Numbered from the stretch's first letter, positions 10,274-28,487 are shown. The stretch: 64,000 nt of DNA from Candidatus Limnocylindria bacterium (GCA_038322875.1 JBBQGI010000003.1:820-64819), one strand, 5' to 3'. Notes: a model not told the origin generated them from the sequence alone. Numbers and translations are program-made.

Positions 10274-10274
10274 T

Positions 10275-10305: not shown

Positions 10306-10317
10306 GCCCCCGCCCGT

Positions 10318-10393
10318 GGGGATGTAGCTCAGTTGGGAGAGCACTGCGTTCGCATCGCAGGGGTCAGGGGTTCGAGTCCCCTCATCTCCACCA
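10318..10393 (+). tRNA. tRNA-Ala (anticodon CGC)
   Basis: 76-nt cloverleaf folded by hand: acceptor GGGGATG/CATCTCC with the G3:U70 Ala identity pair, D arm GCTC/GAGC, anticodon stem CTGCG/CGCAG with loop TTCGCAT, T arm GGGG-TTCGAGT-CCCC, encoded CCA. Confidence 0.95.
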
Positions 10394-10480
10394 CATCATC
10401 CATATCGCCCCTGCCACACCCGTGCAGCTCGGACAGGGCTACCTGCTTGGGCGTCCCGCCCCGATCGACGAGGCCCAGGG

Positions 10481-12787: not shown

Positions 12788-12806
12788 GGGCAGCATCGGG
12801 TTGAGA

Positions 12807-13862
12807 TCAGGGAAGCGCCAAAGGGGCGTCGTAGCCGAAGAACGCGGGCGATCCTGGGTCGCCTGAACAGCCGGCGACCGGGACGGGAGCGAGCGCGAAC
12901 ACCGGGACCCGATCCAGCCCGATCAACAGATCGATTGAAAGAGGTTCACTCGGCGGCGCCCCGCACCAGTTGGCGAAGCCGAGGGAAGTCCATGCCGCCC
13001 CGATTCCGGGTAGGTCTAGCGAATCGGCGCGGGCCGACGCCTCGGACTGCCCGACCACGCGGCCGGCACCGTCGCGAAGCTCCGCGACGGGTGAGGTGGG
13101 CAACCGGCAGTCCGGGGCGACAGCGCTTCCGTAGTTGAGGACAACCACAGTTGCCCAGTTCGTCCCGGCGGCAACGCCCCACTCCCCGATGAATGCGGTC
13201 AATTGGTCCGCGCGACAGTCTTCGATCGGCCCGCCGACGACGGCCAGTCCCGAGGGAAGGAATGCGGAGGCGCTGGCGCCCGACGGTGCCTCCGGGGCGT
13301 TACAGCGCGGCAGAGAGACGGCATTGTCCGCGCCGGGCGTGCCGATTGACGCAGCCAGCGCGCCGCCTTCCTGGGGCAGCGCCAGCCGCATGCCGAGCGG
13401 CAGGCTCGGTGGAGACGAGCACCAATTGGTCCAGATCACCGTGGCGAAGGCAACTTCGCCGACGGGCAGCGGCACATTGTCGCCGGGCGACTCGCCGGAG
13501 ACGGCACCGGCGATGATGGCCCCGGCCGCATCCAGCAATTCAACCTTTGGCGCACCCTGCAGGTCACATCGGGCATTCGAGACATTCACGACCACCGCTG
13601 CTGCCACCAGGGAGCCGGTCGCCCCATCCCAGCCTGCTGCGACCAGCCCCAGCTGGTCGGCCCGGCAGCGCGGGGTGGCAGCGGTTCCCTGCGTTTCATC
13701 GGGTCTCGGTGACGCCGCAGCTGTGACGGATGGTGATGCAGCGGGCGTGGGCGAACGCATGCTCTCGTCGCTGGGGCGAAATGGACCAAGGAAGAGTCCG
13801 ATTGCCAGCACGCCGATGGCGGCTATGCCCAGGATCGCCATTGAACCCCGGCTGAACTGCAT
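12807..13862 (-). CDS. membrane-anchored protein with two tandem DUF4232 domains
   Basis: Start at the ATG with a GGGAGGAG SD (MQFSRGSMAILGIAAIGVLAIGLFL TM anchor); S/P/A-rich linker; two repeats of C..ADQL....G..GATGS......N.S...C.L.G.P.V.L.D..G motifs. Confidence 0.7.
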   Translation of the reverse strand: MQFSRGSMAILGIAAIGVLAIGLFLGPFRPSDESMRSPTPAASPSVTAAASPRPDETQGTAATPRCRADQLGLVAAGWDGATGSLVAAAVVVNVSNARCDLQGAPKVELLDAAGAIIAGAVSGESPGDNVPLPVGEVAFATVIWTNWCSSPPSLPLGMRLALPQEGGALAASIGTPGADNAVSLPRCNAPEAPSGASASAFLPSGLAVVGGPIEDCRADQLTAFIGEWGVAAGTNWATVVVLNYGSAVAPDCRLPTSPVAELRDGAGRVVGQSEASARADSLDLPGIGAAWTSLGFANWCGAPPSEPLSIDLLIGLDRVPVFALAPVPVAGCSGDPGSPAFFGYDAPLALP

Positions 13863-14013
13863 CGCGCTCCTCCCGAGAAAGGACATTACGCCTTCGGCGC
13901 TCGGAGGTACATTACCGGGATGGACGGTCAATCTCGATTGAGGCACCCCGGAGTATTCTCCCGGCATTAAGGGGAGCAAGACGAGTCTCCTGACGGCGCT
14001 GGCCGCAGCAGCG

Positions 14014-14475
14014 GTGGTCTCGGCCTGCCTCGGACCCCAGGCCGCGCGGCCTGCCCAATCCACCATTGTCGCCGTTGGCCTCATCGCCGAACAGCGCTTC
14101 GAGAGCGCCGGTCTGACGTTCACCCTTGAGGGCGGCAAGACATGGGAGGCCGCGACCGGCACGTACCGCTGGATCACGAATTGGGGCACAAAGCTCCTGG
14201 TCGCCGGCACCGATGCGAGCGGAATCTGGCTCGCCACCTTCGGTCCTCAGCAAGGCCTGCCGGCGAACTGCTACTTCTCGCCGGAGGTTGGTACGGAGTG
14301 GGGCGACGGGATCGCGATCAAAGGAGTCCTCTGGCCCAAGGCGCCTTCGTTCGTGGCTGACACGACGCCATCCGTGGGAAGCGACTACCCGGGTGGCACC
14401 AGGTTCTGCCTGAACTCAGCCGGACAGATCGCCTCGATCATCCCCAACACGTACCGACCCAGTCCGACAGAGTGA
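14014..14475 (+). CDS. putative lipoprotein (start codon uncertain)
   Basis: The track ORF starts at GTG 14014 (MVSACLG...), but the upstream in-frame sequence encodes a lipobox signal (KTSLLTALAAAAVVSAC) with an AAGGGGAG SD and no canonical start codon. Confidence 0.45.
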   Translation: MVSACLGPQAARPAQSTIVAVGLIAEQRFESAGLTFTLEGGKTWEAATGTYRWITNWGTKLLVAGTDASGIWLATFGPQQGLPANCYFSPEVGTEWGDGIAIKGVLWPKAPSFVADTTPSVGSDYPGGTRFCLNSAGQIASIIPNTYRPSPTE

Positions 14476-14828
14476 TGTCCGTCGCGAGATCCGCAGCGCT
14501 CATCGCGACGTTCGCGCTCGTCGCAGGCTGTTCGCTGCCTGGCCCAGCCATTCAATGCCCTGATCCCGTGGACCTTTCGCAAGCGGATTGCGATCATGCC
14601 GTCCGGATCGCCACGAGGGCGCTCCCCCTTGAGCAGCGCGACCTGTCTTTCGCGCGGATCGTGGTTTCCGATTTCTGCGCGCATGGCGTGCCGTGCCCAA
14701 GGACGATCGCCAGGATGGCGCTGGTGACCTTCTACCACGATGGCGAGCCACCCTCTCCCGTCAGCGTCACAATCGAACCCTGGCGCGCCCATTTCATCGG
14801 CTCGCCGTCGCCAGCCCCGCTCCAGTAG
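14475..14828 (+). CDS. small lipoprotein
   Basis: SAALIATFALVAGC|S lipobox signal; TGATG overlap with the upstream gene. Confidence 0.55.
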   Translation: MSVARSAALIATFALVAGCSLPGPAIQCPDPVDLSQADCDHAVRIATRALPLEQRDLSFARIVVSDFCAHGVPCPRTIARMALVTFYHDGEPPSPVSVTIEPWRAHFIGSPSPAPLQ

Positions 14829-15017
14829 GCGAATTCGACCCTGCGCTATACTCCCGCCCGAACGCGATGACGCGGGACCAGTAGGCATCCGCCTCGATCC
14901 ACAGCGAGCCGGGATGGTGCAAGCCGGCGATCGAACGGCACCGAACTCGCCCGCCGAGCAGCCGGACACCCGGCCGGGATGGCGTCCGATAGCAGCGCCG
15001 ATGAGTGGACCGATCGT

Positions 15018-15093
15018 GGGGTTGTAGCTCAGCTGGGAGAGCACCTGCATGGCATGCAGGGGGTCGGGGGTTCGAGTCCCCCCAGCTCCACCA
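15018..15093 (+). tRNA. tRNA-Ala (anticodon GGC)
   Basis: 76-nt cloverleaf: GGGGTTG/CAGCTCC acceptor with G3:U70, anticodon stem CCTGC/GCAGG with loop ATGGCAT, T arm GGGGG-TTCGAGT-CCCCC, encoded CCA. Confidence 0.95.
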
Positions 15094-15127
15094 CCCCAAT
15101 CGGTCAAGTCAGAGTGGTACCGCGAAG

Positions 15128-15164
15128 GCCCCCCTTCGTCCTGACGAGGCGGGGGCTTTGTGTT
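15128..15164 (+). terminator. putative intrinsic terminator after tRNA-Ala(GGC)
   Basis: GC-rich imperfect hairpin GGCCCCCCTTCGTC..GACGAGGCGGGGGC followed by TTTGTGTT. Confidence 0.4.
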
Positions 15165-15182
15165 GAGGACCACGTGACGAAG

Positions 15183-15734
15183 ATGACGACGAACAATCCG
15201 GCGCGGACGGCCAGCGATGGCCGCCCCTGGACGCTGCGCGCCGCTCGCCCCACCGACGCGCGTGCGCTGGCGGCGCTCTTCGCCGATGTGCGGCGCGAGG
15301 GCCGCTGGCTGGTGACCCCGGCCTCTGCCGTCAGCCAGCCATCCGAGGCCTTCTACATCGGCGAGATGATTCGTGACTCGGGCAGCCTGGCGCTGGTAGC
15401 CGAGGCCGACGGCGACGTCGTGGGCAATGTCCTGATCAGCACGGAGCGCAGCGTGGTGAGCGACCACGTCGGCACCCTCTCGATCTGCGTGGCCGATGGG
15501 TGGCGCGAGGTCGGGATCGGCTCTGCGCTGGTCAAGGCCGCCCAGGAGTGGTCGCGTGAGCGGGGCCTGGCCAAGGTGGCCCTGGGCGTCTTCCCGGACA
15601 ACGACCGGGCGATCGCGGTGTACGAGCATGCGGGCTTCGTGCGTGAAGGGCTGCGCATTCGCCAGTACCGCGTGCCCGGCGGCGGGTTCCGCGACGAGCT
15701 GCTGATGGCGTGGTTCCCCGAGGTGACGCCATGA
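15183..15734 (+). CDS. GNAT family N-acetyltransferase
   Basis: GNAT core (VGNVLIS...VADGWREVGIGSALVKAA...AGFVREG); internal ATG at 15183 within the track ORF 14979..15734, whose 5' part merely reads through the tRNA. Confidence 0.8.
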   Translation: MTTNNPARTASDGRPWTLRAARPTDARALAALFADVRREGRWLVTPASAVSQPSEAFYIGEMIRDSGSLALVAEADGDVVGNVLISTERSVVSDHVGTLSICVADGWREVGIGSALVKAAQEWSRERGLAKVALGVFPDNDRAIAVYEHAGFVREGLRIRQYRVPGGGFRDELLMAWFPEVTP

Positions 15735-16543
15735 GCACCACCGACCCTGCCATGGCGCGCGGCTTCGACGCCTGGGCCGATGAGTACGACCGGTTCCGCC
15801 CGGGATATCCCGACGAGGTATTCGAGACCATCCAGGCGAGGCTGCAGCTCTCGGACAATCCCTCGGTGGTGGACCTGGGAGCCGGCACTGGCCGCGCCAG
15901 CCTGGCGATGGCGGCGCTGGGCTGGCGGGTGACGGCGGTTGAGCCGGGCAGATCGATGCTGGAGCTGTTGCGCGAGACCGCATCCGAGAATGGGCTGTTG
16001 GTGTCGACCATCCAGGCCAATGCCGAGGTCACCGGCCTGGACCCGACATCGGTCGACCTGGTCACCGCCGCCCAGGCGTTCCACTGGTTCGACAAGCAGG
16101 CTGCCATGGAGGAGATCGCTCGCATCCTGAAGCCCGGCGGCGGCCTGGCGCTGATCTGGAATGTCCGTGACGCCGAGCGTTCGCCATTCCTGGCCGCCTA
16201 CGCGGCCCTGCTGAAGGATTCGAGCGAGCGCGCCGACGATTCCGGCATCGGGCGCTATGAGTCAAGAGGCCGAGCCGGGACGCAACGGGCGCTGGAGGAG
16301 GCTCCGGGCTTCGATGCACCCGAGCTGATCGAGCTGCATCAGCACGTGGCCATGACCGCCGAGCAGTTCGTGGGGATGGCATTCACCGCGTCGTACGTGC
16401 GAGTCGGCATGTCGTCCGAGCGGCAGCATCAATTCCGACGCGACCTGGTCGCGCTGCTGGAACGCCACCGGCTGGGGGACGGGAAACCATTTGCCGTCCC
16501 GTATCGGGTCGACCTGTGGATCACACGAAGGAGCGGAGCATGA
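15731..16543 (+). CDS. class I SAM-dependent methyltransferase
   Basis: VVDLGAGTGRASLAMA motif I; ATGA overlap with the upstream GNAT. Confidence 0.85.
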   Translation: MSTTDPAMARGFDAWADEYDRFRPGYPDEVFETIQARLQLSDNPSVVDLGAGTGRASLAMAALGWRVTAVEPGRSMLELLRETASENGLLVSTIQANAEVTGLDPTSVDLVTAAQAFHWFDKQAAMEEIARILKPGGGLALIWNVRDAERSPFLAAYAALLKDSSERADDSGIGRYESRGRAGTQRALEEAPGFDAPELIELHQHVAMTAEQFVGMAFTASYVRVGMSSERQHQFRRDLVALLERHRLGDGKPFAVPYRVDLWITRRSGA

Positions 16544-19089
16544 CCACCACGGAGCGCTTCGACCCACGGACCTACGAGCCGGCCTGGCGCGAGCGCTGGG
16601 CCGCCGATGAGCTCTATCGGGCCGATGACGACGACCCGCGGGCCAAGCACTACCTGCTGACCATGTACCCGTACCCCTCGGGCGACCTGCACATCGGTCA
16701 CTGGTATGCCGCCACGGGGCCCGACATCGTGGCGCGCATGCGCCGCATGCAGGGCCTGAACGTGATGTTCCCGATGGGCTTCGACTCCTTCGGGCTGCCG
16801 GCCGAGAACGCGGCGATCGATCGCGGCGTGCACCCCTGGGAGTGGACGAACGCCAACGTGGACCGGATGCGGACCCAGTTCCGCTCAATGGGCTGCATGT
16901 TCGACTGGAGCCGCGAAGTCGTCACCCACGACCCCGCCTACTACCGCTGGACGCAGTGGCTCTTCGTGCAGTTCTTCCGCGCGGGGCTGGCGTATCGGGC
17001 CATGGCGCCGGTCGACTGGTGCCCCAAGGACCAGGTGGTGCTGGCACGAGAGCAGGTTGAAGGCGCCGATCGGCACTGCTGGCGCTGCGGCACGCCGGTC
17101 ATCAAGCGCGACCTGGAGCAGTGGTTCTTCCGGACCACCAAGTACGCCGATGAGCTGCTGGACTTCAGCAAGATCGACTGGCCGGACCCCATCCGCCTGA
17201 TGCAGACCAACTGGATCGGTCGCAGCGAGGGCGCCGAGATCGACTTCGCGGTGGAGGCCGATGGGGTGGCGCCGATCCGGGTCTTCACCACCCGTCCCGA
17301 CACCATCTTCGGCGCAACCTTCATGGTGCTCGCCCCTGAGCACCCGGCGGTGGCCCCGCTGACGGCCCCGGAGCGGGCCGAGGAGGTGGCCGCGTACACC
17401 GCCGCGGCGCGCCGCGAAACCGAGATCGAGCGGATGAGCACCGAGCGCGAGCGGAAGGGGGTCTTCATCGGCTCGCATGCGGTCAACCCCATGACCGAGG
17501 AGCGCATCCCGATCTGGATCGCCGACTACGTGCTGCCCGGCTACGGCACGGGCGCGATCATGGGCGTCCCCGCGCACGACGAGCGCGACTTCGCCTTCGC
17601 CACCCGCTACGACCTGCCGATCCGCTACGTGGTGCTGCCGCGAGGCGGGACGGCGCCGCAGGGCGAGGCCTTCGTGGCCCACACCGCGGACGAGGTGCTG
17701 GTCGGGTCGGGCGACTTCACGGGCATGACCGCGGCCGAGGGGATCGCGGCCATCACCGCGGAGCTGGCACGCCGCGGGCAGGGGGAGGCGGCGATCACCT
17801 ACAAGATCCGCGACTGGCTGATCAGCCGGCAGCGCTACTGGGGCGCCCCGATCCCCATCGTCTACTGCGACGAGCACGGCGCGCAGCCGGTGCCGGAGGA
17901 CCAACTGCCGGTGCTGCTGCCGCACGACGTGGACTTCGCGCCCACCGGCGTGTCGCCGCTGCAATCGAACGAGGAGTTCCTGAACGCGACCTGTCCGGTC
18001 TGCGCCGGACCGGCGCGCCGCGAGACGGACACGATGGACACCTTCGTGGACTCGTCGTGGTATTTCCTGCGCTACGCCTCGCCGCACGATGAGGAGCGCG
18101 CGTGGGATTCGGCCGCGGTGGAGGACTGGCTGCCGGTCGACCTGTACACCGGCGGCGCCGAGCACGCGGTCCTGCACTTCCTGTACGCCCGCTTCTTCGT
18201 CAAGGCGCTGCGCGACATGGGGCAGCTGAACTTCGACGAGCCGTTCATGGCGGTGCGCAACCAGGGGCAGATCCTGGGCGCCGACCACCACCGCATGAGC
18301 AAGTCGCGCGGCAACGTCGTCAACCCTGACGACCTGACCTCGCGTTTCGGCTCGGACACAGTGCGCTGCTTCCTGATGTTCATCGGGCCGTGGGACATGG
18401 GCGGGCCGTGGAACCCGTCGAGCATCGAGGGGGTGCATCGGTTCCTGGGTCGAGTCTGGGCGGTGGCCCAGGCTGGCCCGGGCGGGCAGCCTCGGCATGT
18501 TCCCGGGATGCCACCCCCACAAAGCCTGGCCGGTGAGCAGCCCGGCAGCGGCGGAGAAGGGCGTGAGACGCTGGGCGCCATCGAGGGGGGTCAGCGCGGG
18601 CTGCGGCATGCGACCCATGTGGCCATCAAGGAGGTCGGCGAGGACTACGCCGAGTTCCACTTCAATACCGCGCTCTCGAAGATGATGGGGCTGACCAACG
18701 CGCTGGGCGACGCGCGCGACGCCGGCCTGGCCGGGACCGATGCCTACGCCGAGGCGGTCGACGCGCTGCTCCTGCTGCTGGCGCCGATGGCGCCGCACAT
18801 CAGCGAGGAGCTGTGGTCGCGGCGCGGGAAGCCGTACAGCATCCACCAGCAGGCGTGGCCGGCCTACGACGCCGGGCTCGTCATCGCCGACACGATCGAG
18901 CTGCCGGTGCAGGTCGACGGGAAGCTGCGCGATCGGTTGGTGGTGGCCCCCGATACGGCTCCCGACGAGATCGAGCGGCTGGCGTTGGCCAGTGAGCGGG
19001 TGCAGGCCCACCTGAAGGGACGCACGCCTCGCAAGGTGGTGCAGATCCCCGGGCGCCTGGTGAATATCGTCACGCCCAAGAACGACTGA
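16540..19089 (+). CDS. leuS: leucine--tRNA ligase
   Basis: 849 aa bacterial-type LeuRS; HIGH (PSGDLHIGHW) and KMSKS (RMSKSRGN) motifs; GAAGGAG SD; ATGA overlap with the upstream gene. Confidence 0.95.
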   Translation: MTTTERFDPRTYEPAWRERWAADELYRADDDDPRAKHYLLTMYPYPSGDLHIGHWYAATGPDIVARMRRMQGLNVMFPMGFDSFGLPAENAAIDRGVHPWEWTNANVDRMRTQFRSMGCMFDWSREVVTHDPAYYRWTQWLFVQFFRAGLAYRAMAPVDWCPKDQVVLAREQVEGADRHCWRCGTPVIKRDLEQWFFRTTKYADELLDFSKIDWPDPIRLMQTNWIGRSEGAEIDFAVEADGVAPIRVFTTRPDTIFGATFMVLAPEHPAVAPLTAPERAEEVAAYTAAARRETEIERMSTERERKGVFIGSHAVNPMTEERIPIWIADYVLPGYGTGAIMGVPAHDERDFAFATRYDLPIRYVVLPRGGTAPQGEAFVAHTADEVLVGSGDFTGMTAAEGIAAITAELARRGQGEAAITYKIRDWLISRQRYWGAPIPIVYCDEHGAQPVPEDQLPVLLPHDVDFAPTGVSPLQSNEEFLNATCPVCAGPARRETDTMDTFVDSSWYFLRYASPHDEERAWDSAAVEDWLPVDLYTGGAEHAVLHFLYARFFVKALRDMGQLNFDEPFMAVRNQGQILGADHHRMSKSRGNVVNPDDLTSRFGSDTVRCFLMFIGPWDMGGPWNPSSIEGVHRFLGRVWAVAQAGPGGQPRHVPGMPPPQSLAGEQPGSGGEGRETLGAIEGGQRGLRHATHVAIKEVGEDYAEFHFNTALSKMMGLTNALGDARDAGLAGTDAYAEAVDALLLLLAPMAPHISEELWSRRGKPYSIHQQAWPAYDAGLVIADTIELPVQVDGKLRDRLVVAPDTAPDEIERLALASERVQAHLKGRTPRKVVQIPGRLVNIVTPKND

Positions 19090-19096
19090 AATGTTC

Positions 19097-19120
19097 GCTA
19101 AGCGGTCGCCAAGCGGTCGC
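19097..19120. repeat. tandem 10-nt direct repeat AAGCGGTCGC-c-AAGCGGTCGC at the leuS/island junction
   Basis: Two adjacent copies beginning 11 nt after the leuS stop, exactly where GC content drops. Confidence 0.5.
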
Positions 19121-19166
19121 AGAGTAGGCTGACCAACATGCCGCACGCAATCGGGATTACGACGGG

Positions 19167-19379
19167 ATGACGCACTCAGTGCGACAGATTCGCCTCCAAA
19201 GTGACGAACTGACCTTCTGGGTGGAGGTCCGCGCTTGCACTGAAGACCGGCGGCTAGCAGTCGCTTTTCTCGCTGGAGATCCCGAAATCGGAATGGGTCC
19301 AACCGAGCAGGATGCGATTCTCGATGCCCTCAAACCTCTAGGCGAAGCGGCTTCCCGCCTTCTTACCGAGAGCCTCTAA
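19167..19379 (+). CDS. hypothetical protein (island)
   Basis: 70 aa ORF in the low-GC region; no recognisable motif. Confidence 0.25.
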   Translation: MTHSVRQIRLQSDELTFWVEVRACTEDRRLAVAFLAGDPEIGMGPTEQDAILDALKPLGEAASRLLTESL

Positions 19380-19687
19380 TAGTCCGGGAGGTCCTGAATG
19401 GCTAGGCGATAAGGTGCGCGGCGCCGGGACGATTGTGGTCGACGCGACCTCGCTCAAGGCCGCGAGCATGCTGCTCGGCATGGCATCTCCCCGGAATCGA
19501 GGGCATTAAGAAATTCAAGGAAGCGACCGAGGTCGGACTCGACGTCGTCGAGTACCTGTCGAAGGCGGATGCGCCCGCCCAGCCGCAGGACACCTGACCC
19601 TTGGGAGTGCGCGTAACTGCACGCTACTCCCAGGCCACCACGTTGTGGTATTGGCCTGCTTACCTCCTGGCCGGCTACCGCTCCGGA

Positions 19688-20146
19688 CTAGTAGCCCGCG
19701 GCGAACTCTCTCGCCTGAGCCTCAGTAACCCCAGGGCCTATCCAGGCCGTATACCGACAGCCCGCCTCCGCCCAGCTGAGGGTGATTTGCCCTCGCGGTG
19801 GATCTCCTATGTTGAAAAGCGCTGCGTGCTGCCCGCGAACGACAACGGCGCTCGGGTCATTCGGCGCTACGGTTGCGGGATCGATGATCGCGAACTGGCC
19901 AACAAGCTGACTGACCTCATTCTGTCCATCACCCCAAACGTACAAGACCCCGTAGTCGCCCTGGACTTGGTGAGGAGATCCGGGATCCCCGCCCAAGGGA
20001 AGTACCCTCGGGGCCACGGCGCTGCACGCTGAGGTAGAGGGTGAGATAGACGGTAATGCCGACTGGGAGGTGGTGCATGCCCCGAACAAAAGCGCCAGGG
20101 TGATTGCCACGGTCGCGCGAATGAATACCCTGCTAGTCATCGGCAA
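19688..20146 (-). CDS. lipoprotein (island cargo)
   Basis: Signal peptide with lipobox (ITLALLFGAC|T); last gene of the minus-strand island operon. Confidence 0.5.
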   Translation of the reverse strand: MPMTSRVFIRATVAITLALLFGACTTSQSALPSISPSTSACSAVAPRVLPLGGDPGSPHQVQGDYGVLYVWGDGQNEVSQLVGQFAIIDPATVAPNDPSAVVVRGQHAALFNIGDPPRGQITLSWAEAGCRYTAWIGPGVTEAQAREFAAGY

Positions 20147-20735
20147 CCGGCACTAACCCCGGGCCAATTCCGTGGTGACGACCGTCCGCTACAAACACGA
20201 CCAAATCATATGTCGTTAGAAGCGTTCCGCGACCCTGAACGACGCCCAATGGGTCAACAAGGAACGCTGACGGGGTGGGAAGGAAGGCAGCATCGGGCTC
20301 CGAGATGACCACCCAGTCACCGGCCGATGGGGTGCCTACGGTTCCCACCGTTAGCACATGCAACTCGTAGTCGAGGACCATCGGCCGCACATCATTCAGG
20401 CCGGCAAGGATCGTTGTGCATGCCTCGCAATCGGCCTTGACCAAGATCAGCAGAGCCCATCGCGAAGTGAGAATGGCGGCGATATGGGACGAGACGGGCC
20501 GGCCCACAAGCAGGTAGTCCGTGCTGGGCCAATTTGGTTCATCGTGGTCGGATTCTGAGCCGTGTCCCAGATCCATCGCGTGGTCGGTTGCCAGATGGTC
20601 ACGCCAAGATCGCTGTACACCCTCCATCGCGAGGGCTTGTCGGCTCACGACCACCGTCAGAATTCCGATCAGTGAGAGTTGGACGAGCTCGGTTAGCTCC
20701 ACGAGGGCGAGCCTCGACGCGGTAGCAAATGCCAT
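20133..20735 (-). CDS. thioredoxin-fold thiol-disulfide oxidoreductase (MauD/TlpA-like)
   Basis: CxxC motif (LLILVKADCEACTT) in a thioredoxin-like context; N-terminal TM anchor if started at MAFATAS...; immediately downstream of the MauE-like gene; start is uncertain (track ORF 20133..20972). Confidence 0.5.
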   Translation of the reverse strand: MAFATASRLALVELTELVQLSLIGILTVVVSRQALAMEGVQRSWRDHLATDHAMDLGHGSESDHDEPNWPSTDYLLVGRPVSSHIAAILTSRWALLILVKADCEACTTILAGLNDVRPMVLDYELHVLTVGTVGTPSAGDWVVISEPDAAFLPTPSAFLVDPLGVVQGRGTLLTTYDLVVFVADGRHHGIGPGLVPVADD

Positions 20736-21175
20736 GCGACCGGGACTACAAGCGCAATGGATAGGATCGCAGTTGGGGTCAGGCTGCGGGATGGCCCGAG
20801 GACAGCAACACCTACGGAGGCCACCACCAAGAACGCATTTCGCAGGAAGCTCGTTCGGTCTGGTGGTCGCGTTGATGGTCCAAAGCAACCACAGCCGATT
20901 GACAATGCCCGGCTCCTCCATAGCGCCCCGGTTGCGACAACTAGACCGAAAGCAGACAGCAGCCCAGGCCACACCGGGAAGCTTGCCAGGACGATCGCAA
21001 CGGCGACTTCAGCACCGACCGTCACTGGCGCGAGCGCATTTGGCAAAGGCAGGCCAAGGGCCGTAAGCCATTCCACGTGGTTTCGCCAACTGATCGCCTT
21101 GCCGACCGCTGCCAACAGCCAGACCGCGGCGAGACCTACCGCTAAGACCGTCGCCAGGACTGGTGCTTCAAACAT
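20693..21175 (-). CDS. MauE/DoxX-family membrane protein (methylamine-utilisation MauE-like)
   Basis: 160 aa; 4 TM; conserved GCGCFG motif typical of MauE-like proteins. Confidence 0.6.
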   Translation of the reverse strand: MFEAPVLATVLAVGLAAVWLLAAVGKAISWRNHVEWLTALGLPLPNALAPVTVGAEVAVAIVLASFPVWPGLLSAFGLVVATGALWRSRALSIGCGCFGPSTRPPDRTSFLRNAFLVVASVGVAVLGPSRSLTPTAILSIALVVPVAWHLLPRRGSPSWS

Positions 21176-21412
21176 CGACTCGGGCCCGACGCAAATAGTC
21201 CTGCGCTGGCTTCAGGTCCATCGCCTCAAGGCCCTCAGGGGTTGAGATGAACCAGCGCTGAGCCCCTATCGAACTGTCGGCCAGAACCGCTCGTGCCTCG
21301 AATCCGCGCCCAGCGTAGGGGGCCGGCAAATCGAACAACAGGATGCGCGTCCCGCGTCGGTGCTCGATCCACGCGTCCAACAGCGTTCCCTCCGACGTCG
21401 GCGGACCTATCC

Positions 21413-21952
21413 TCACGGGTCGATGCAGGGATGGTCGCAACAGTGGTACTGATCGAACTCGCGACGCTTGGCACGAATTCGTTCACGGAAGGCTATTCCG
21501 TTAGCGTTCCAGCTGTTGTTGGTCAAACTCTGTTGGGTAAAGTTGGTCCCCATGCATACCGTGCCTGTGCATCCCGATGTGCCGCATGGATTCCAAAACT
21601 TACAGTTGGCGTGCGGTCTCAATCGGTCAGCGAGGTCCGGCGTTGCCAGGTGTGAGACCAAGAATGCCAGGGAGCATTCCTGGAAGAAGCTAGGGCCGGA
21701 GATGTTCCCTGATCCGCACCCACCGAAGCACCCGTTGAGCATGATGCCCATGGTTTTGCAGTTGCAGCCACATTGGCTGATGGCCTGAGCGTCATCCCAA
21801 CTGCTGCAAACCACGATCTGACCGCTATAGCGGACGAAGAAATCGTAGCCAGATGTGCAGTAGTTGGTCGTTGTGTTCTGGTGGGCGTTGGGTGAGCCAG
21901 TATGGTGCACGACCACATAGGCTCGCCGAGGAGCCGTCCCATAGTGGCTCAT
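21413..21952 (-). CDS. N-acetylmuramoyl-L-alanine amidase, PGRP/Amidase_2 (T7-lysozyme-like) domain with Cys-rich C-terminus
   Basis: By-eye alignment with T7 lysozyme: YVVVHHTGS / GYDFFVRYSGQIV / TMGIMLNGCF correspond to the FVHCSAT / GYHFIIKRDG / IGVCLVGG blocks; many Cys in the C-terminal half. Confidence 0.65.
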   Translation of the reverse strand: MSHYGTAPRRAYVVVHHTGSPNAHQNTTTNYCTSGYDFFVRYSGQIVVCSSWDDAQAISQCGCNCKTMGIMLNGCFGGCGSGNISGPSFFQECSLAFLVSHLATPDLADRLRPHANCKFWNPCGTSGCTGTVCMGTNFTQQSLTNNSWNANGIAFRERIRAKRREFDQYHCCDHPCIDP

Positions 21953-22284
21953 GTCAAAGCGTCCCGGGTGTATTCCTTGTCGAGTCGGGCGAGGTCGCCC
22001 GGCTCAATCACTTCCACTATGTCGAAGCCCGTCTCTGGCACATCCCACATTGTTTCAGCGGGCGAACACGGCAGCTCTGATCGGCGAGTGTCGGGCTGGG
22101 GCAGACGTGCTTCCTCGCCCGCGGCTCGAGCGGCCGCGGGGAGCGCATGGCTCAACACAACGCTTGCCGAAGTGAAAAGAGCAAGCTCGACAAACCGACG
22201 TCTGCTCAGGTTCGCGCCAGGCTGGGAATCCACGGGCGCCTTCGGGGGCTCCGGGTCGGGGGTCGCCCATTGGTTTCGCGGCAT
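21949..22284 (-). CDS. Tat-signal protein (possibly the N-terminal part of the downstream amidase)
   Basis: Twin-arginine signal (SRRRFVELALFTSASVVLSHALPAAARA); ATGA overlap with the amidase ORF. Confidence 0.45.
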   Translation of the reverse strand: MPRNQWATPDPEPPKAPVDSQPGANLSRRRFVELALFTSASVVLSHALPAAARAAGEEARLPQPDTRRSELPCSPAETMWDVPETGFDIVEVIEPGDLARLDKEYTRDALT

Positions 22285-22342
22285 GTTCCTCGCTCCGGTC
22301 CATCGTTAGGGATTGCGAATGCAAAAGCAAGTCCCGTTCAGC

Positions 22343-22582
22343 TCACTTCTGGTGCCCGTGACGGCTATTGAGCCACAGCGCCAGGCCGAGTACCCCAGCC
22401 GTCGCGGCTCCCGCGCCGATAGACAGCCCGGCCCCACACGGGACGCCGTAGCCGAACACTGACGAACACTGCGGAGGTAGGGAGTCGACCCCGCCCGTGG
22501 GTGCAAGCAGCACCCACACGACGAGACCGGCGAGGAGCGGAACAGCAATCCTGACTCCCATCAGCCAAGAACCCTGCAGCAT
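22343..22582 (-). CDS. small membrane protein
   Basis: Two hydrophobic helices; lies between the protease and the Tat/amidase genes in the same strand array; the track ORF starts at 22636. Confidence 0.35.
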   Translation of the reverse strand: MLQGSWLMGVRIAVPLLAGLVVWVLLAPTGGVDSLPPQCSSVFGYGVPCGAGLSIGAGAATAGVLGLALWLNSRHGHQK

Positions 22583-22601
22583 CAGCGTCACTCTTCGGCA
22601 T

Positions 22602-23858
22602 TCAGTTGACAGCGACGTTGACGCCCAGGGCGTCATCTATCCGATCGGCTCGGGAGAACAAGTCTCGGTCGAAAGGCCAGACCGGATCGTAGCGCCAGCC
22701 CTGATGGAGCCCGTAGGCAGTATTGCCCCAGTACACGGACCCACCACTGTCGCCGGGAGCCGCCAATCTCGCCGCCATCTGCACGAGGCTGCACGCAGCT
22801 CCGTTGCAGACGTTGAGCTGGATGACTTGCTGGCAGTCCTGGAAGCTCGCGATGCCGTTCTTACAGAGGGACTGCCCCACGACCGGAGCACCCACGGCAG
22901 CGACATCGCGCCTGTTGACTTCGGTTGCGTTGGCGTTACCCGCGTAGAAATCATCGGGTTTAGCCTGAGGTCCGGTATGCCACTGGAAGTCACCGTGAGC
23001 CCCGATATGGCCTGCCTGAATGTTCAGAGCTACACCGTCGTCGGATAGAGTATTCGAGCAATGTCCAGCGGTGCTAATGCCACTCACCCCTGAGGAGGTC
23101 CTGACCACAAACCCTGACGTGCAAACCCCCGAAAGACTCTCGCCGCCCATGTGTTCGGTGTTGCTGTCAGTACCGCCCAGAGCCGGGAGGTTTGATCGGA
23201 CCACGGAGACGGTGATGCTGTCGAGAATGTCTCCTGCGCCGGAATCGATGAGCTTCTCCGTGGCGCCTGCGCGAAGGTCATCGAGCACGGAATCTGCCAC
23301 GCCGCCGTCCAGTGCAACGACAGTCGTAATCTGGCGGGTATCAAAGTCGAACGAGGTCGACGCGTCTCGGACCCCGGCCGTGTCGAATGCGGCGTAATGG
23401 ACTGTCGCAATCGCCTTCTCAAGTTCGAGCTCGGTGAACCCCAAGTCGGTTTGCACCTCGACCTTAACGTTTGCGTGGCTCTTACCGAACGTGTCGATGA
23501 TCGCGAGGGCGCTATCAGGGGCGCCAGCCGCGAAGGCAACCCACGCGCCCCCAGCATCGACGATCTCTGCACCGGTGAAGGCCTCTGGAGCCACCTCGCG
23601 GACCGTCGACACCGCAAGGGCAAAATTATCGTTCCACGCGTAGCGGTCGATTGCCTCCTGGAGGGACATACCATGTTGACCAGCGACGGCTTTCAGGTCC
23701 TCGAGCTCCGCATCACTGATAGGATCATCGATCTGAGGCTGCGCCACGTCCGGGAGGGGCAGGCTCTCGCCTCCGGCGGCAGTGTCTGTCTGTGCCACGA
23801 GAACGGCCGTCATCAGCGTCAGCATTACGACAACCGACAGGCCACCCCGTCTCACCAT
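22602..23858 (-). CDS. secreted S1E family serine peptidase (alpha-lytic protease/streptogrisin-like) with N-terminal pro-domain
   Basis: Signal peptide; catalytic His (TAGHC) and Ser (GDSGGSVY) motifs; ~160 aa pro-region typical of alpha-lytic protease precursors. Confidence 0.8.
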   Translation of the reverse strand: MVRRGGLSVVVMLTLMTAVLVAQTDTAAGGESLPLPDVAQPQIDDPISDAELEDLKAVAGQHGMSLQEAIDRYAWNDNFALAVSTVREVAPEAFTGAEIVDAGGAWVAFAAGAPDSALAIIDTFGKSHANVKVEVQTDLGFTELELEKAIATVHYAAFDTAGVRDASTSFDFDTRQITTVVALDGGVADSVLDDLRAGATEKLIDSGAGDILDSITVSVVRSNLPALGGTDSNTEHMGGESLSGVCTSGFVVRTSSGVSGISTAGHCSNTLSDDGVALNIQAGHIGAHGDFQWHTGPQAKPDDFYAGNANATEVNRRDVAAVGAPVVGQSLCKNGIASFQDCQQVIQLNVCNGAACSLVQMAARLAAPGDSGGSVYWGNTAYGLHQGWRYDPVWPFDRDLFSRADRIDDALGVNVAVN

Positions 23859-24027
23859 GGCCCTTCCTTTCAGCTATCAGCCTTCAGCATTACCGGGGGG
23901 ATCCCGGAATCGATTCCCGCTAAAGCGCGGGCGCCCGGCGTCCCACTATCATATGACTCCTCGTCAAGCCTGAAATTACCGGGCGTCGCCCGGACCAACG
24001 AGCCAACCGGGGCATGGACCGTTTCCG

Positions 24028-24636
24028 GTGCTCGTTCGCCAGCGCAACTCGCACCTGATCGAGGGGGTGCATCGCTTCCTGGGTCGCGTCTGGCCGGTGG
24101 CCCAGGCGACGGGCGGCGCAGGCGACGCCGGCGGGGCGGAGCGCGGGCTGCGGCATGCCACCCATCGGGCCATCAAGGAGGTCGGCCAGGACTACGCCGG
24201 GTTCCACTTCAACACGGCGCTCTCGAAGATGATGGGGCTGACCAACGCGCTCGGCGACGCACGCGATGCCGGCCTGGCCGGGACCGATGCCTACGCCGAG
24301 GCGGTCGATGCGCTGCTCTTGCTGCTGGCGCCGATGGCGCCGCACATCAGCGAGGAGCTGTGGTCGCGGCGCGGGAAGCCGTACAGCATCCACCAGCAGG
24401 CCTGGCCTGCCTTCGACCCTGCGCTGGTCACGGCCGACACGATCGAGCTGCCGGTGCAGGTCGATGGCAAGCTGCGCGATCGGCTGGTGGTGGCACCGGG
24501 GACCGCCCCTGAGGAGATCGAGCGCCTAGCATTGGCGAGCGAGCGAGTGCAGGCGCACCTGAAAGGCCGGACACCGGCCAAGGTGGTCCAGATCCCCGGT
24601 CGCCTGGTGAATATCGTCACGCCGGGGAGTAATTGA
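24028..24636 (+). pseudogene. leuS 3' remnant (diverged duplicate of leuS codons ~640-849)
   Basis: Homology to leuS 18440..19089 begins at IEGVHRFLGRVW. It is about 88% nt identical by eye, lacks a ~117-nt segment present in the intact gene, and has no 5' part, start or RBS. Confidence 0.85.
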
Positions 24637-24681
24637 AGTGTCCGCGGGTGCCCAGCCGGAGACCGGGTTCAGTGACTCAGT

Positions 24682-25605
24682 TCAGATTGGTCGGCGCCGC
24701 CACACAACCCACGCGGCCAGTCCGGTCGACCCAGAGGTGACGACCGCCAGAACGCCCGCTTCACGAGCTACCCACGTCCAATAGTCGCTACCAGGAATCA
24801 TCAAGTACCGGCCGAATTCCGTCCCGGGCGGCAGATTTTCGATATTTCGCTCCGTGGTCACCGTCCCGTCCGGAAGGATCGCCACTGGCCCGAGCGTCAT
24901 CCCGTTTATGAACGGCGAATCCGGCGTGAGATCTGAAGGGTCGATCACGACTGCCTCAGCGCGACGCCAGACATCCAGGGCAAGCGTCACTCCGACGATG
25001 ACGCTCGCGGACAAGGCAATGGCTACCAAGACCGCCGGCAGTGTGCGGCCGAGGAAGGCACCCGCAAGGACTGCAAGTAGAAGCGCCACGATGCCCCTCA
25101 TCGGGACAATCAAGCCTCGCTGATCGTACCGAAGCAGGCCCGGGTCATCCCCCGCGAGGCGGGTCCAAGCCAGTTGCTCACTGGCCGCCGCCATCACCAG
25201 CAATAGCGCCACTGCAACCAGCAGCAACGGCCAGACTCGGCCTGCCAACCAACCGACACGATTGACGGCAAGGGACCAGGAGAGTTGAGCCGTGCGGAGT
25301 TCCAATTCGCGAGCCACGATCGGGACTCCCAGGACAACCCCCGCGAGCATCGGCGCAGGCACGACGAGCCACATCGCCAGGCTTGCGCTTTGGTCCCAGA
25401 TGGCGAACTGCGGCTGCACGACACCGCAATTGGTTGCGTTCACTGCCGTAAGCCGGAAGCAGCTTGGATATTGGGCGGCGAGCCCGCCTAGCCGCCAGCC
25501 GATGAAGAGCACCGCCGCCAACCAGGCGCTTACCGCCAAGACGATCGCGGTCACCTCAAAACGGTGGAGCCGGAATACCAGTCGCATCCAGGTCAAGCTC
25601 CTCAA
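24682..25605 (-). CDS. ABC-2 type transporter permease
   Basis: 307 aa; 6 TM; coupled by an ATGA overlap to the upstream ATPase. Confidence 0.7.
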   Translation of the reverse strand: MRSLTWMRLVFRLHRFEVTAIVLAVSAWLAAVLFIGWRLGGLAAQYPSCFRLTAVNATNCGVVQPQFAIWDQSASLAMWLVVPAPMLAGVVLGVPIVARELELRTAQLSWSLAVNRVGWLAGRVWPLLLVAVALLLVMAAASEQLAWTRLAGDDPGLLRYDQRGLIVPMRGIVALLLAVLAGAFLGRTLPAVLVAIALSASVIVGVTLALDVWRRAEAVVIDPSDLTPDSPFINGMTLGPVAILPDGTVTTERNIENLPPGTEFGRYLMIPGSDYWTWVAREAGVLAVVTSGSTGLAAWVVWRRRPI

Positions 25606-26456
25606 TTCACGGCCTCCCCCGACTGGCGAAGAGCAGAAAGATGGCCCAACACGATCTCCTCCAGTGAAGCCGGTCGCGACTCCGGAGGTTCGGCAGCACG
25701 TTCATGGTGAATGAGGCTGAGCGCCATCCCGCCGGGGTCGGGGAACTGGCCCACGATCTGTTCCTGGTGACTCACCGACGATATCGAGAAGCACGCCAGG
25801 GCATCCTCAATGGAGGTCTGCAACAGCAGCTTCCCGCTACCTAGCACGATGAGCCGGTCGCACGCCTGCTCAATATCTGTGACGATGTGGGATGAGAGAA
25901 GGGCCGTCGTACCTTCGCCTCTGACGGCGCCGACGACAAGCTGGAGGAATTCGCGCCTGGCGAGCGGATCCAGCTGGGCGAGTGGCTCGTCCAAGAGCAG
26001 AACCTCAGGGTGGGTCGCCAGAGCGATGGACAGGATGACCTGAGCCTGTTGGCCGCCGGAGAGCCGACCGCCTAGGCTTTCGAGCGGAATGCCCAACGCA
26101 TCAAGCCGACTTCGTGCCATTTCGCGGTCGAATGCTGGTCGCAGGAACCCGGCCATGCGCAGGTGCTCCTCGACTGAAAGGCTCTCGTAGAGTGCGGGTG
26201 ACTGGGAGACGTAGCCAACGCGACTCAGTGCGCTTCGCCGGTCGCGCCAGGCGTCATGGCCCGCAACGAGAGCGGAACCGGTGGTGGGTCGCTCAAAGCC
26301 GACCCAACTCCGCAGGAGTGTGGACTTCCCGGCACCATTCGGCCCAACCAGTGCCGTGATGCCGCCTGCGGCGATCTGGAGGTTGATCCCGCGCAATGCC
26401 CATCGGCGGCGCCCAAAGCGCTTGCCGAGGTCATTCGCCCCAAGGATGGGCATCAC
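25602..26456 (-). CDS. ABC transporter ATP-binding protein
   Basis: Walker A (GPNGAGKST), ABC signature (LSGGQQAQV), Walker B (LLLDEP). Confidence 0.9.
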   Translation of the reverse strand: MMPILGANDLGKRFGRRRWALRGINLQIAAGGITALVGPNGAGKSTLLRSWVGFERPTTGSALVAGHDAWRDRRSALSRVGYVSQSPALYESLSVEEHLRMAGFLRPAFDREMARSRLDALGIPLESLGGRLSGGQQAQVILSIALATHPEVLLLDEPLAQLDPLARREFLQLVVGAVRGEGTTALLSSHIVTDIEQACDRLIVLGSGKLLLQTSIEDALACFSISSVSHQEQIVGQFPDPGGMALSLIHHERAAEPPESRPASLEEIVLGHLSALRQSGEAVN

Positions 26457-26574
26457 CGGGAGATTCGGTTCAAGCGACCGAATTGTACCGTGCCAGAACT
26501 ATTGTCGGCGGCCACAATCATGCGATACGGTGACGCTCAACCTATCCTAATTGCCAAGAGGAAGGAGCGTCGCG

Positions 26575-27006
26575 ATGCGAATGAGGGAGTCGACTCACAG
26601 ATCGATCGGGAAGCAGCTGCGGACCCTTGTCGTGGCCGTGGTCTTGGCGAGCGTCACTGTTGCAGGGGCGCCGAAACCAGTATCAGCGTCAACTCCTTGC
26701 TCTGTAACTCTCTTTGCGCCAACGACCAACGGGGTGGTAGCCACGCATGTCGCGTACGGTGACTGCCCGCCTAGCCCCACGATGGATTGGATCAAGGGGC
26801 AGCTTTACAGCCTCTTCTTCGCCTGGCCGACTCTTCAGGCGAGTTGCATTAACAACAACAACAGTTCGAATCCTCAAGGGTGCCAGTCGCAATACAACTG
26901 CAACGGATCAGGGACCCTCGAGCACTTCGGCAAGGTCAACGTCCGTGACATCGCTGGCGGAGAGACAGGCTGGCGCGAAAGCGGGCACGCGTGGCTCACG
27001 TGCTGA
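26575..27006 (+). CDS. small secreted Cys-rich protein (bacteriocin/toxin-like, unknown family)
   Basis: GAGGAAGGAG SD 7 nt upstream of the ATG; Sec signal peptide; ~100 aa mature part with 7 Cys and an NNNNSSN tract; low GC; divergent from the ABC exporter. Confidence 0.55.
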   Translation: MRMRESTHRSIGKQLRTLVVAVVLASVTVAGAPKPVSASTPCSVTLFAPTTNGVVATHVAYGDCPPSPTMDWIKGQLYSLFFAWPTLQASCINNNNSSNPQGCQSQYNCNGSGTLEHFGKVNVRDIAGGETGWRESGHAWLTC

Positions 27007-27060
27007 CGGCCTTCAGCTTATTGCGATAACGCCGGGTACGGAGAACTCGCTTTCTGTCGA

Positions 27061-27669
27061 ATGGCCCGACGCAAGGACATGACTGCGATCACTGCGCTCT
27101 TCGCACTGATCGCAGTCAGCATGTCCGGCTGCCTTGCGCTCCAATCTAGCAGCGATGCCAATAGTCACTCTCGCCTAGTGGCTGCTACTTGGTTTGATGC
27201 GGCCTCCAAGGATCAGCAGAGTCTCCTAGAAGACGAGATCATCACCGCCGATGAGTACGGGCAGGCCCTGAATGCTGGAAGGCGGTGCATGGAAGACAAA
27301 GGGTTCCATGTTTCTCCCCTCCAGGACCTGCCTGATAGAATCCGGCGCGACTTCATCGTCTACGCCGGCACGCGGTCAGATGACGATGTCACCCCCGAAT
27401 GGCAACGGTGTCGCGATCAACACTACGGCGTCGTTGAAGGCATATGGCTTCTCCAGCACGTTCGCCAGGACACGAGCAAGGTCGAGGAAGAACTCCTCAG
27501 GTGTCTCGCTGGCAACAGCATCACGGGAGCTACCATTGGCATGGCCGACTCGGACCTCGTTCAGTTGCTGTACCAGCGGGCGGCTTCGGAGCAGGCGTGG
27601 ACTTGTCGGGAAGTCTTTCTTATCACGTCTGGGAACTTGCAACCACTTCCGCCAGGAGGCCCGCCGTAG
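27061..27669 (+). CDS. lipoprotein (unknown function)
   Basis: Lipobox signal (ALIAVSMSGC|L); low GC; 202 aa. Confidence 0.55.
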   Translation: MARRKDMTAITALFALIAVSMSGCLALQSSSDANSHSRLVAATWFDAASKDQQSLLEDEIITADEYGQALNAGRRCMEDKGFHVSPLQDLPDRIRRDFIVYAGTRSDDDVTPEWQRCRDQHYGVVEGIWLLQHVRQDTSKVEEELLRCLAGNSITGATIGMADSDLVQLLYQRAASEQAWTCREVFLITSGNLQPLPPGGPP

Positions 27670-27865
27670 TCCCCGGCATGGCCAAAGAAGGCTATGACCG
27701 AGCTGGACGACTAACTGGGTCCCCTGATGAGCCGACGGTAAGCATCGGGTAAGGCACAGGGCCCTAGGCTGGCCGTCCTGTCTCCGGAGCCCGCCGTCGA
27801 GTGCCCGGACGTCGGGTTCCGGACAGGTCATCCATTCGCTCGCCTCCCGCGAGGGTGGTGGACCG

Positions 27866-28471: not shown

Positions 28472-28487
28472 GCGGCCACCGGCGCCC

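Follow-up and report, generated by a model that had tools for sequence, protein, structure and literature searches.

A truncated second leuS 3' end in foreign DNA between leuS and comEA of an uncultured soil Chloroflexota bacterium

Introduction

The leucyl-tRNA synthetase gene leuS of an uncultured soil Chloroflexota bacterium, a Limnocylindria-like MAG, is followed by DNA of lower GC content and, further downstream, by a second leuS 3' end that lacks the rest of the gene. How did the second end come to lie there, and did the inserted DNA carry a recombinase of its own? We investigated these questions in a window of 64,000 nt, which is the whole stretch of DNA analyzed (GCA_038322875.1, JBBQGI010000003.1:820-64819). 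A preliminary description of the locus had used high-GC Gram-positive bacteria as its frame of reference, which does not apply to a Chloroflexota source, and had attributed the arrangement to a site-specific element at the 3' end of leuS.

Several known systems place foreign DNA at the 3' end of a gene. Phage 21 and e14 integrate in the icd 3' end and supply a substitute end. ICESt3-type ICEs and integrase-less CIMEs occupy the 3' ends of fda, rpsI, and rpmG, including by tandem accretion (PMC7563491). Kirchberger et al. 2017 (PMC5361080), citing de Vries & Wackernagel 2002 and Jackson et al. 2009, proposed displacement of the 3' (C-terminal) end by homology-facilitated illegitimate recombination (HFIR) to explain T6SS effector-immunity arrays and the orphan ends of Rhs loci.

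Results

The intact leuS was located on the plus strand at 16516-19089, with GTG at 16516 or ATG at 16540 as its start. Its end at 19089 was as first described, and the gene carried the tRNA-synt_1, tRNA-synt_1_2 (editing), and Anticodon_1 domains (Pfam). The encoded protein was 86-90% identical in amino acids to LeuS of Limnocylindria MAGs. When the leuS end was compared with the downstream ORF by BLASTN, the reported duplicate was confirmed by two matches, one of 50 nt (24058-24107 versus 18424-18473, 94%) and one of 484 nt free of gaps (24140-24623 versus 18593-19076, 90.1%). These matches, together with a multiple alignment of orthologues, delimited the left repeat copy, which is the leuS 3' end at 18424-19089 (plus strand), and the remnant at 24058-24636 (plus strand), which consists of the last ~580 nt of leuS without the 5' part. 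The remnant has an open frame, a stop codon at 24634-24636, and an Anticodon_1 match (Pfam). The duplicate had been placed at 24028-24636, but homology started abruptly at 24058, at a non-homologous junction with the cargo, and the GTG at 24028 is incidental. As already noticed, the homologous part has no start codon, and the ORF opens in unrelated DNA. This right junction (24057/24058) is known from one metagenomic contig. The duplicate had also been described as lacking a ~117-nt segment. A length difference was indeed present, yet it was not a simple loss: the copies differ in a variable region of 119 nt in the intact leuS (18474-18592, long type) versus 32 nt in the remnant (short type), a net 87 nt, and both types occurred among the leuS orthologues in the multiple alignment. 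Similarly, a run of 76 nt that is identical in both copies and had been put forward as a crossover core proved nearly invariant in all orthologues, so its identity is explained by conservation.

We found that the two copies were 10% divergent overall; over the last 211 nt the figure rose to 16%, which equals between-species divergence. The dN/dS ratio between them was 0.135, with 38 of the 56 differences at third codon positions. Changes polarized against five outgroups numbered 22 synonymous and 5 non-synonymous on the remnant branch (P = 2e-9 versus neutral), and 11 synonymous and 7 non-synonymous on the intact-copy branch; both copies evolved as functional leuS. Since the differences were mostly synonymous, the copies are two functional alleles brought together instead of one having decayed in place. 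Judged by its sequence, the remnant is a recently functional leuS 3' end and not a chance similarity. Moreover, leuS was a sequence mosaic among related lineages, including further upstream of the repeat, suggesting that homologous exchange is frequent among these lineages. Sites shared with the closest relative (L081) were also considered. Left of ~18630, 18 sites against 1 linked the remnant with L081, most of them in a single indel region, and right of ~18630 the sites favored the intact copy by 29 to 20. The use of these sites to name the native copy or the crossover was dropped, as the patterns relative to L081 and further relatives were mosaic and leuS was mosaic upstream too.

In ~38 related loci, leuS was followed by comEA within 130-370 nt, so the whole of 19090-27711 (8.6 kb, GC 0.61 versus 0.70) is inserted DNA. 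The site was likewise empty in L081, which had 87-93% nucleotide identity across the flanks and aligned with the window up to 19077 and again from 27718. The proposal that an insertion separates leuS from comEA was thereby borne out. The native right flank (27866-31247, plus strand), assigned by Pfam and by synteny with leuS in relatives, consists of comEA (27866-28471) and comEC (28488-31247), with SLBB and HHH_3, and Competence, DUF4131, and Lactamase_B domains. Low GC had been reported for 19.1-24.0 kb, with the remnant at the far junction of the low-GC element. Windowed GC reproduced the drop, but low GC resumed past the remnant and ran to ~27.7 kb, and the remnant sits in the middle of low-GC DNA. 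On its two sides lie island 1 (19133-24057, GC 0.614) and island 2 (24637-27711, GC 0.617, absent from relatives), versus 0.701.

Native DNA resumes at a complete conserved intergenic element (27718-27861, plus strand), which forms a structured leader immediately upstream of comEA. This element had BLASTN matches in ~35 loci, an nhmmer E value of 3.8e-32 with a model built from 40 sequences, and an RNAalifold helix with 5 covarying pairs; it had no Rfam match. The 5' part of the element (model positions 27-66) was present a second time, degenerate and truncated, at 19093-19132 (plus strand). This copy ranked second among the nhmmer matches in the window, with E 0.63, or E 0.004 for a search of the junction regions alone. 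The tandem 10-mer previously noted after the leuS stop at 19097-19120 is real, lies at 19100-19120, and is part of this truncated element. A ~40-nt duplication of the stop codon and first intergenic hairpin flanking island 2 was considered by aligning 24625-24700 locally with 27700-27775 and with the L081 spacer, and was dropped, as the alignments scored no higher than those of shuffles or random windows.

Island 1 carries a 70-aa ORF on the plus strand (19167-19379), followed on the minus strand by a lipoprotein-like ORF (19688-20146, LFGAC lipobox read in translation), a thioredoxin-like CxxC ORF (20133-20972, CEAC motif read in translation), a MauE/DoxX-like gene (20693-21175, Pfam), an Amidase_2-like gene (21413-21952, Pfam), a 97-aa ORF (22343-22636), and an S1 (streptogrisin-like) protease (22602-23858) whose homologues bear the source names S1 family peptidase or streptogrisin C. 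The protease module (22334-23880) was 87% identical to contigs that place it after an ECF sigma factor gene, not leuS. As its sequence indicates, island 1 is a patchwork in origin. Island 2 carries a multi-pass membrane ORF (24682-25605) and an ABC ATPase (25602-26456, Pfam ABC_tran) on the minus strand, and two ORFs on the plus strand (26551-27006 and 27061-27669).

Six-frame Pfam scans of 19080-24060 and 24631-27720, a method that might overlook a recombinase of a new type or in advanced decay, revealed no recombinase and matched only MauE, Amidase_2, and ABC_tran. PHROGs and NCBIfam gave no matches either, in agreement with the earlier statement that 19-28 kb holds no integrase. No RNA gene that might act as an att site was detected in 18.9-28 kb by Rfam, tRNA, or tmRNA scans. 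An integrase-bearing element at leuS was found in 0 of ~45 related loci, screened only with the window's own proteins, and literature searches yielded nothing relevant on leuS as an integration site or on a leuS-targeting element family.

The layout of the window recurred with different boundaries. In the independent assembly L010, leuS and a leuS remnant were separated by an unrelated insert of 2.3 kb, and the remnant was followed by the intact intergenic element and then comEA. The L010 remnant had an open reading frame and was 88.6% identical to leuS over 507 nt. In leuS coordinates it started at ~18495, ~70 nt further in than that of the window (~18424); the left repeat also reached a different distance downstream, and the long and short variable-region types were swapped between the intact copy and the remnant. 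Thus, the two independent insertions (n = 2) shared neither att boundaries nor a core. Three more loci had inserts directly after leuS in which no leuS remnant was seen, L004 (PMT_2 glycosyltransferase), L007 (LysR regulator), and L016. L091 and L092 had a donor-like left junction, matching the window at 18593-19403 (814 nt, 82.4%) through the leuS end, the truncated element, and the 70-aa ORF. Their element stretch (nhmmer E 8e-6, model positions 27-77) was 71% identical to the truncated copy of the window. The cargo common to them and the window was the first ~300 nt only, beyond which L091/L092 differed and carried Vsr, C5 methylase, and HATPase_c_3. Neither the main ORFs of the L010 insert nor the 2.7 kb visible of L091 contained a recombinase (Pfam). 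No donor with the full cargo was found, and the 70-aa ORF had no homologues beyond the query itself and one 575-bp contig.

Discussion

We favor the view that the leuS-comEA spacer is a hotspot gathering foreign gene blocks without an integrase of their own, two of which are stacked here. The island is an ordinary gene island, probably built by the cell's own recombination. To insertion without a recombinase, anchored in the conserved 3' end of leuS and proceeding by HFIR or a single crossover ('3'-end displacement'), we give slightly more than even weight. The newer block (19133-24057) would most likely stem from DNA of a related lineage in which a leuS 3' end, the truncated intergenic element, the 70-aa ORF, and cargo already stood together. 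One end of this donor DNA would have been joined by homologous recombination in the conserved leuS 3' region, and the other by an illegitimate join at leuS position ~18424, as in HFIR; a single crossover by a circular copy with a ~0.7-kb leuS segment would yield the same product. The outcome would be a complete mosaic leuS, then cargo, with the 5'-truncated leuS end displaced downstream. We infer this route from the layout alone, and the native copy and the order of the two insertions likewise. The marks of HFIR at the locus are a truncated anchor 3' end beyond the cargo, differing functional alleles, and a donor-like left end elsewhere. Two independent illegitimate joins ~70 nt apart in leuS are a coincidence that counts mildly against this explanation.

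The leuS island is a further instance of an already known phenomenon. As proposed for T6SS and Rhs loci, incoming DNA would be anchored in a conserved stretch of the upstream gene and would leave the former 3' end further downstream as a 5'-truncated orphan, with cargo stacking over successive events, no integrase, and varying junction positions. However, the T6SS/Rhs anchor encodes a polymorphic toxin that has alternative tips and is paired with immunity genes, whereas leuS is an essential housekeeping gene and both of its ends serve the same function; here, no selection keeping the orphan is evident, and we infer the mechanism.

A site-specific integrative element at the leuS 3' end, which brought a replacement end and either lost its integrase or is a CIME-like passenger mobilised in trans, is a possible but doubtful source of the island. 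Of that earlier proposal, the insertion and the extra, recently functional leuS end stand, and the tie to a site-specific recombinase does not. The layout resembles phage 21 and e14 at icd and ICESt3 at fda in the intact target gene, the atypical, lower-GC cargo, and the 5'-truncated direct repeat of the gene's 3' end beyond it (18424-19089 and 24058-24636), with an empty site in relatives, as integrative elements leave; tandem stacking is known there as well. Moreover, leuS was hit again in L010, and L091/L092 retain the left-end module of truncated element and 70-aa ORF with other cargo, as an element family would. ICEs and integrase-less CIMEs in the fda, rpsI, and rpmG 3' ends provide a precedent (PMC7563491). 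Unlike these systems, however, the leuS island has no integrase, excisionase, or relaxase, and no recombinase domain was detected in either block or in the scanned parts of L010 and L091. Its repeats are 0.6-0.7 kb, compared with tens of bp to ~0.2 kb in the phage 21/e14 and ICESt3 type. To our knowledge, the identity segments of usual att sites are far shorter than ~0.6-0.7 kb. The repeat boundaries are unlike on both sides between the two cases, and inserts free of a leuS repeat occupy the same spot; the count of 0 in ~45 loci adds weakly, given that only the window's proteins were used. A CIME would have att sites from a known ICE/IME family and often stands in tandem with a member of one; 19-28 kb contained no recombination or conjugation genes, and the literature searches brought up no leuS-targeting family.

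Insertion with long target duplication (Nobusato et al. 2000; Furuta et al. 2010) was described for restriction-modification genes in competent bacteria, mostly naturally competent species (Furuta et al. 2010, PMC2853133), and shares with the leuS island the integrase-free insertion and long variable direct repeats that align to a single-copy target in an empty genome; the cargo of L091/L092 at the hotspot is a DNA methylase/Vsr module. The recipient's leuS 3' end would here have been duplicated, and one copy later overwritten by allelic recombination. Such replacement is plausible because leuS is visibly mosaic, but it is an extra event that must be assumed. The leuS repeats are two diverged functional alleles (10% apart, synonymous-biased, 16% in the last 211 nt, with an 87-nt indel in the variable region) instead of a fresh duplication, the purifying selection signature on both branches rejects duplication and simple decay, and the window cargo is not a restriction-modification system, all of which makes this explanation improbable. 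Just as little probability is given to recombinase-free 'homology-hitchhiking' cassettes, each with ~0.7 kb of leuS 3' end, circulating via RecA. RecA recombination between the two direct repeats would release a circle, and once this had passed to a relative, a single crossover with the leuS of the new host would insert it again; a conserved gene would then be a universal landing pad with no integrase required.

It is very improbable that the contig is a chimeric assembly artefact in which two strains were fused at conserved leuS sequence. It comes from a metagenome assembly, and strain mixtures are common in these data, since one related MAG holds three versions of the locus. The same layout is nevertheless present in the independent assembly L010, the left junction is reproduced in L091/L092, and the right junction leads from non-homologous DNA into the middle of leuS, unlike a repeat-induced chimera. 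Least probable of all is that the fragment is a working gene for a free-standing LeuRS C-terminal tRNA-binding module under selection: its 202 open codons, the mostly synonymous changes on its branch, and the open L010 remnant would fit, but the ORF begins outside the leuS homology, a search for promoter-like sites gave none, an apparent 1-nt deletion versus orthologues changes the last codons, recent displacement from a functional gene fully accounts for the synonymous bias, and chance long open frames are common at ~70% GC. In annotation, the name 'class I tRNA ligase family protein' for the 202-codon ORF at 24028-24636 should give way to that of a gene remnant.

Together, these results suggest that uncultured soil Limnocylindria (Chloroflexota) gain accessory genes, among them proteases, transporters, glycosyltransferases, and a DNA methylase/Vsr module, at a fixed spot beside an essential gene with no integrase in sight, and that the displaced leuS end marks the layers left by one acquisition after another. 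Should many genomes show the pattern, 3'-end displacement would extend from toxin loci to housekeeping genes, and the pattern would be indirect evidence for frequent DNA exchange in this group, possibly by natural transformation. The competence genes comEA and comEC adjoin the island, but this group is not known to be naturally transformable.

Two minor observations concern the remnants. The large ORFs adjoining them in the window and in L010 had no BLAST similarity to each other; GDSG-type motifs were seen by eye in both, and the S1 peptidase assignment was confirmed for the window protein only. Three short LeuS C-terminal proteins (P0008, P0086, and P0109) that had been considered as further remnants were frameshift-split leuS genes with comEA directly downstream, on long contigs of long-read-style assemblies.

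Extent of the insertion after leuS

The leuS gene (16516, or 16540, to 19089) encodes the full set of expected LeuRS domains. BLASTN of leuS against the window recovered a partial copy in two blocks, one at 24058-24107 matching 18424-18473 (94%) and the other at 24140-24623 matching 18593-19076 (90.1% over 484 ungapped nt), with 119 nt between the blocks in intact leuS versus 32 nt in the copy. The alignment gave no homology to leuS upstream of 24058, so the 609-nt ORF at 24028-24636 begins by chance in unrelated DNA. The preliminary description of a low-GC insertion after leuS with a leuS duplicate was confirmed, with its coordinates and extent corrected. GC was 0.57-0.65 across 19.1-24.0 kb, ~0.70 over the leuS copy (the remnant, 24058-24636), low again over 24.6-27.7 kb, and 0.70-0.74 from comEA on; the two low blocks averaged 0.614 and 0.617 versus 0.701 in the remaining window. 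Since GC drops on both sides of the remnant, it lies within the low-GC DNA and not at its far edge, where it had been placed.

The proteins of the window were mapped onto 80 loci from genomes and 43 from metagenomes. In ~38 relatives, leuS was followed by comEA within 130-370 nt and then by comEC, and the anticipated empty leuS-comEA junction thus exists in related genomes. One of them was L081, an ENA contig and the closest relative found, with both flanks 87-93% identical to the window. Its alignment ran up to 19077 and resumed at 27718 with nothing between, indicating that all of 19090 to ~27711 is inserted relative to relatives. The C-terminus of LeuS was matched best by MAGs carrying the label Chloroflexia, Chloroflexota or Candidatus Limnocylindria. 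A further indel between the window and L081 was seen beside tRNA-Ala (15018-15093), where ~2 kb (12769-14835) is missing in L081; ~80 nt at 10315-10394 resemble the tRNA-Ala region (86.6% identity).

Cargo of the insertion

The first block (19133-24057) contains a 70-aa ORF, a lipoprotein-like ORF (LFGAC lipobox), a thioredoxin-like ORF (CEAC motif), MauE/DoxX-like and Amidase_2-like proteins, small ORFs, and a secreted S1 protease of 418 aa. The second (24637-27711) encodes an ABC ATPase and a multi-pass membrane protein, alongside two unknown ORFs. When both blocks were scanned with Pfam in six frames, no recombinase, transposase or phage domains were found, in agreement with the initial reading that the insert lacks an integrase; PHROGs and NCBIfam added nothing further for the insert, and no tRNA, tmRNA or Rfam family was found in 18.9-28 kb. 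The first block is a patchwork: metagenome contigs carry its protease module (22334-23880) at 87% identity, and there the protease is preceded not by leuS but by a 144-aa gene that itself follows an ECF sigma factor gene. Downstream of the S1 protease, the small ORF at 22334-22558 (minus strand) is similar to the 3' portion of that 144-aa gene, and its counterparts in a related contig (L084) lie at 2469-2696 and 4200-4421. The arrangement hints at a repeated module of sigma factor, partner and protease.

The same layout and other inserts at the leuS spacer

An independently assembled Chloroflexota MAG contig (L010) carried a complete leuS, a 2.3-kb insert (GC 0.63), a leuS remnant 88.6% identical to that gene's own end over 507 nt, and then the intact leuS-comEA intergenic element and comEA. 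Its cargo had no similarity to that of the window, its remnant started ~70 nt further into leuS, and the long and short types of the variable region were swapped between the two copies relative to the window. Inserts without a remnant were found directly after the leuS stop in three other loci, carrying a PMT_2 glycosyltransferase (L004, 2.3 kb), a LysR regulator (L007), or, before the intergenic element, ~0.4 kb of repeated CGCCGCCAGCGG(C/T)AC(A)TTAC-like units (L016, 9620-10030). These varied inserts make the spacer after leuS a general insertion hotspot.

An Anaerolineae MAG contig (L043) carries two full-length leuS genes (10001-10618 and 12767-15271) ~2 kb apart. The MAG MFD06085.bin.1.42 contains three versions of the leuS-comEA-comEC locus on separate contigs (L001, L008 and L019), one of them riddled with frameshifts, and this bin is probably a strain mixture or holds uncollapsed assembly variants.

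Divergence of the two leuS ends

Across 165 codons, the intact copy and the remnant had 9, 9, and 38 differences at codon positions 1, 2, and 3 respectively (dS 0.377, dN 0.051, dN/dS 0.135). When changes were polarised with five outgroups, the remnant branch had 22 synonymous and 5 non-synonymous changes (P = 2e-9 against neutral) and the intact branch 11 and 7. Decay of a duplicate formed in place, for which a ratio of ~0.55 is expected, was rejected (P = 1e-5). Divergence was also uneven, at 5.1% in 18593-18865 versus 16.1% in 18866-19076, the latter being a between-species distance. This substitution pattern and the uneven divergence together show that the two ends are different functional alleles, that the remnant belonged to a working leuS until recently, and that one of the two ends derives from another lineage. 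A tree built from the 484-nt block placed the two copies as mutual nearest neighbours; identity to L081 was 93.2% for the intact copy and 92.0% for the remnant. The short variable region is common to the remnant and L081, but further 3' L081 resembles the intact copy slightly more.

The mosaic pattern extends upstream of the repeat; across the whole of leuS, different segments are nearest to different relatives, which suggests frequent homologous exchange. The length-polymorphic segment (18474-18592), 3' of the catalytic core, is ~119 nt or ~32 nt by lineage (L001-L015 and L081), and which type a lineage has does not follow overall relatedness.

The left junction

Two metagenome contigs, L091 and L092 (JGI Ga0184633_10015090 and Ga0184639_10008126; mutual identity 98.9%), matched 18593-19403 continuously (82.4% over 814 nt); the matched region takes in the end of leuS with its stop codon, then a short non-coding stretch, then a 70-aa ORF homologue. 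Past 19403 their cargo differs, encoding a Vsr endonuclease, an HATPase_c_3 protein and a C5 cytosine DNA methylase (L091 1158-3747), a restriction-modification-like defence module at the leuS hotspot. The non-coding stretch corresponds to the 5' part of the intergenic element in truncated form; the nhmmer match is significant in L091 and L092 (E 8e-6, model positions 27-77) and weak, though at the homologous place, in the window (19093-19132). The tandem 10-mer reported after the leuS stop is a degenerate GGTAAG...GGTAAG part of this truncated element. The left repeat unit thus extends from leuS ~18424 past the stop codon into the intergenic element. Genomes that combine leuS, the truncated element, the 70-aa ORF and variable cargo exist and are plausible donors.

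Origin of the insertion

By a slight margin over even chances, we favour a homology-anchored route independent of a recombinase. DNA from a relative would pair with the conserved leuS 3' region, its far end would be joined illegitimately, and the recipient leuS end would be left downstream of the join as the remnant. Host recombination would suffice for such homology-facilitated illegitimate recombination, and a single crossover with a circular copy would give the same product. This type of illegitimate recombination has been proposed for the orphan 3' ends of T6SS and Rhs loci (PMC5361080). Wider interest would follow only if systematic integrase-free cassettes use leuS as a landing pad.

The preliminary description instead proposed an element integrated site-specifically into the leuS 3' end. 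That proposal is supported in part. There is an insertion that displaced a leuS end, and the layout by itself is the classic footprint of integration into the 3' end of a gene; elements of this kind, and the CIMEs derived from them that lack an integrase, have been well documented at fda, rpsI, and rpmG (PMC7563491). The evidence nevertheless points away from a dedicated element, in that no recombinase was found in any copy seen, the repeats are 0.6-0.7 kb, boundaries vary between cases, inserts without a repeat occupy the same spot, and the cargo is a patchwork; a decayed or trans-mobilised element is a tentative second choice. Insertion with long target duplication, a related class of events that also needs no integrase (PMC2853133), conflicts in its simple form with the divergence of the leuS copies; such a duplication followed by allelic replacement is improbable. 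That the contig is an assembly chimera is very doubtful, and that the leuS fragment is functional is less credible still.

A conserved element upstream of comEA

Conserved across more than 40 Chloroflexota loci, where it fills the leuS-comEA spacer, the complete intergenic element (~140 nt; 27718-27861, plus strand) lies upstream of comEA here and in L001-L042 and L081-L083, and had no Rfam match. Its fold is a hairpin that has an invariant GAGUGCCCGG loop and five base pairs with compensatory changes, and an invariant CUCGCCUCCC tract was seen by eye 3' of the hairpin. This tract could pair with and mask the comEA ribosome-binding site. The element is a candidate for an undescribed, riboswitch-like cis-regulatory leader of the comEA-comEC operon.
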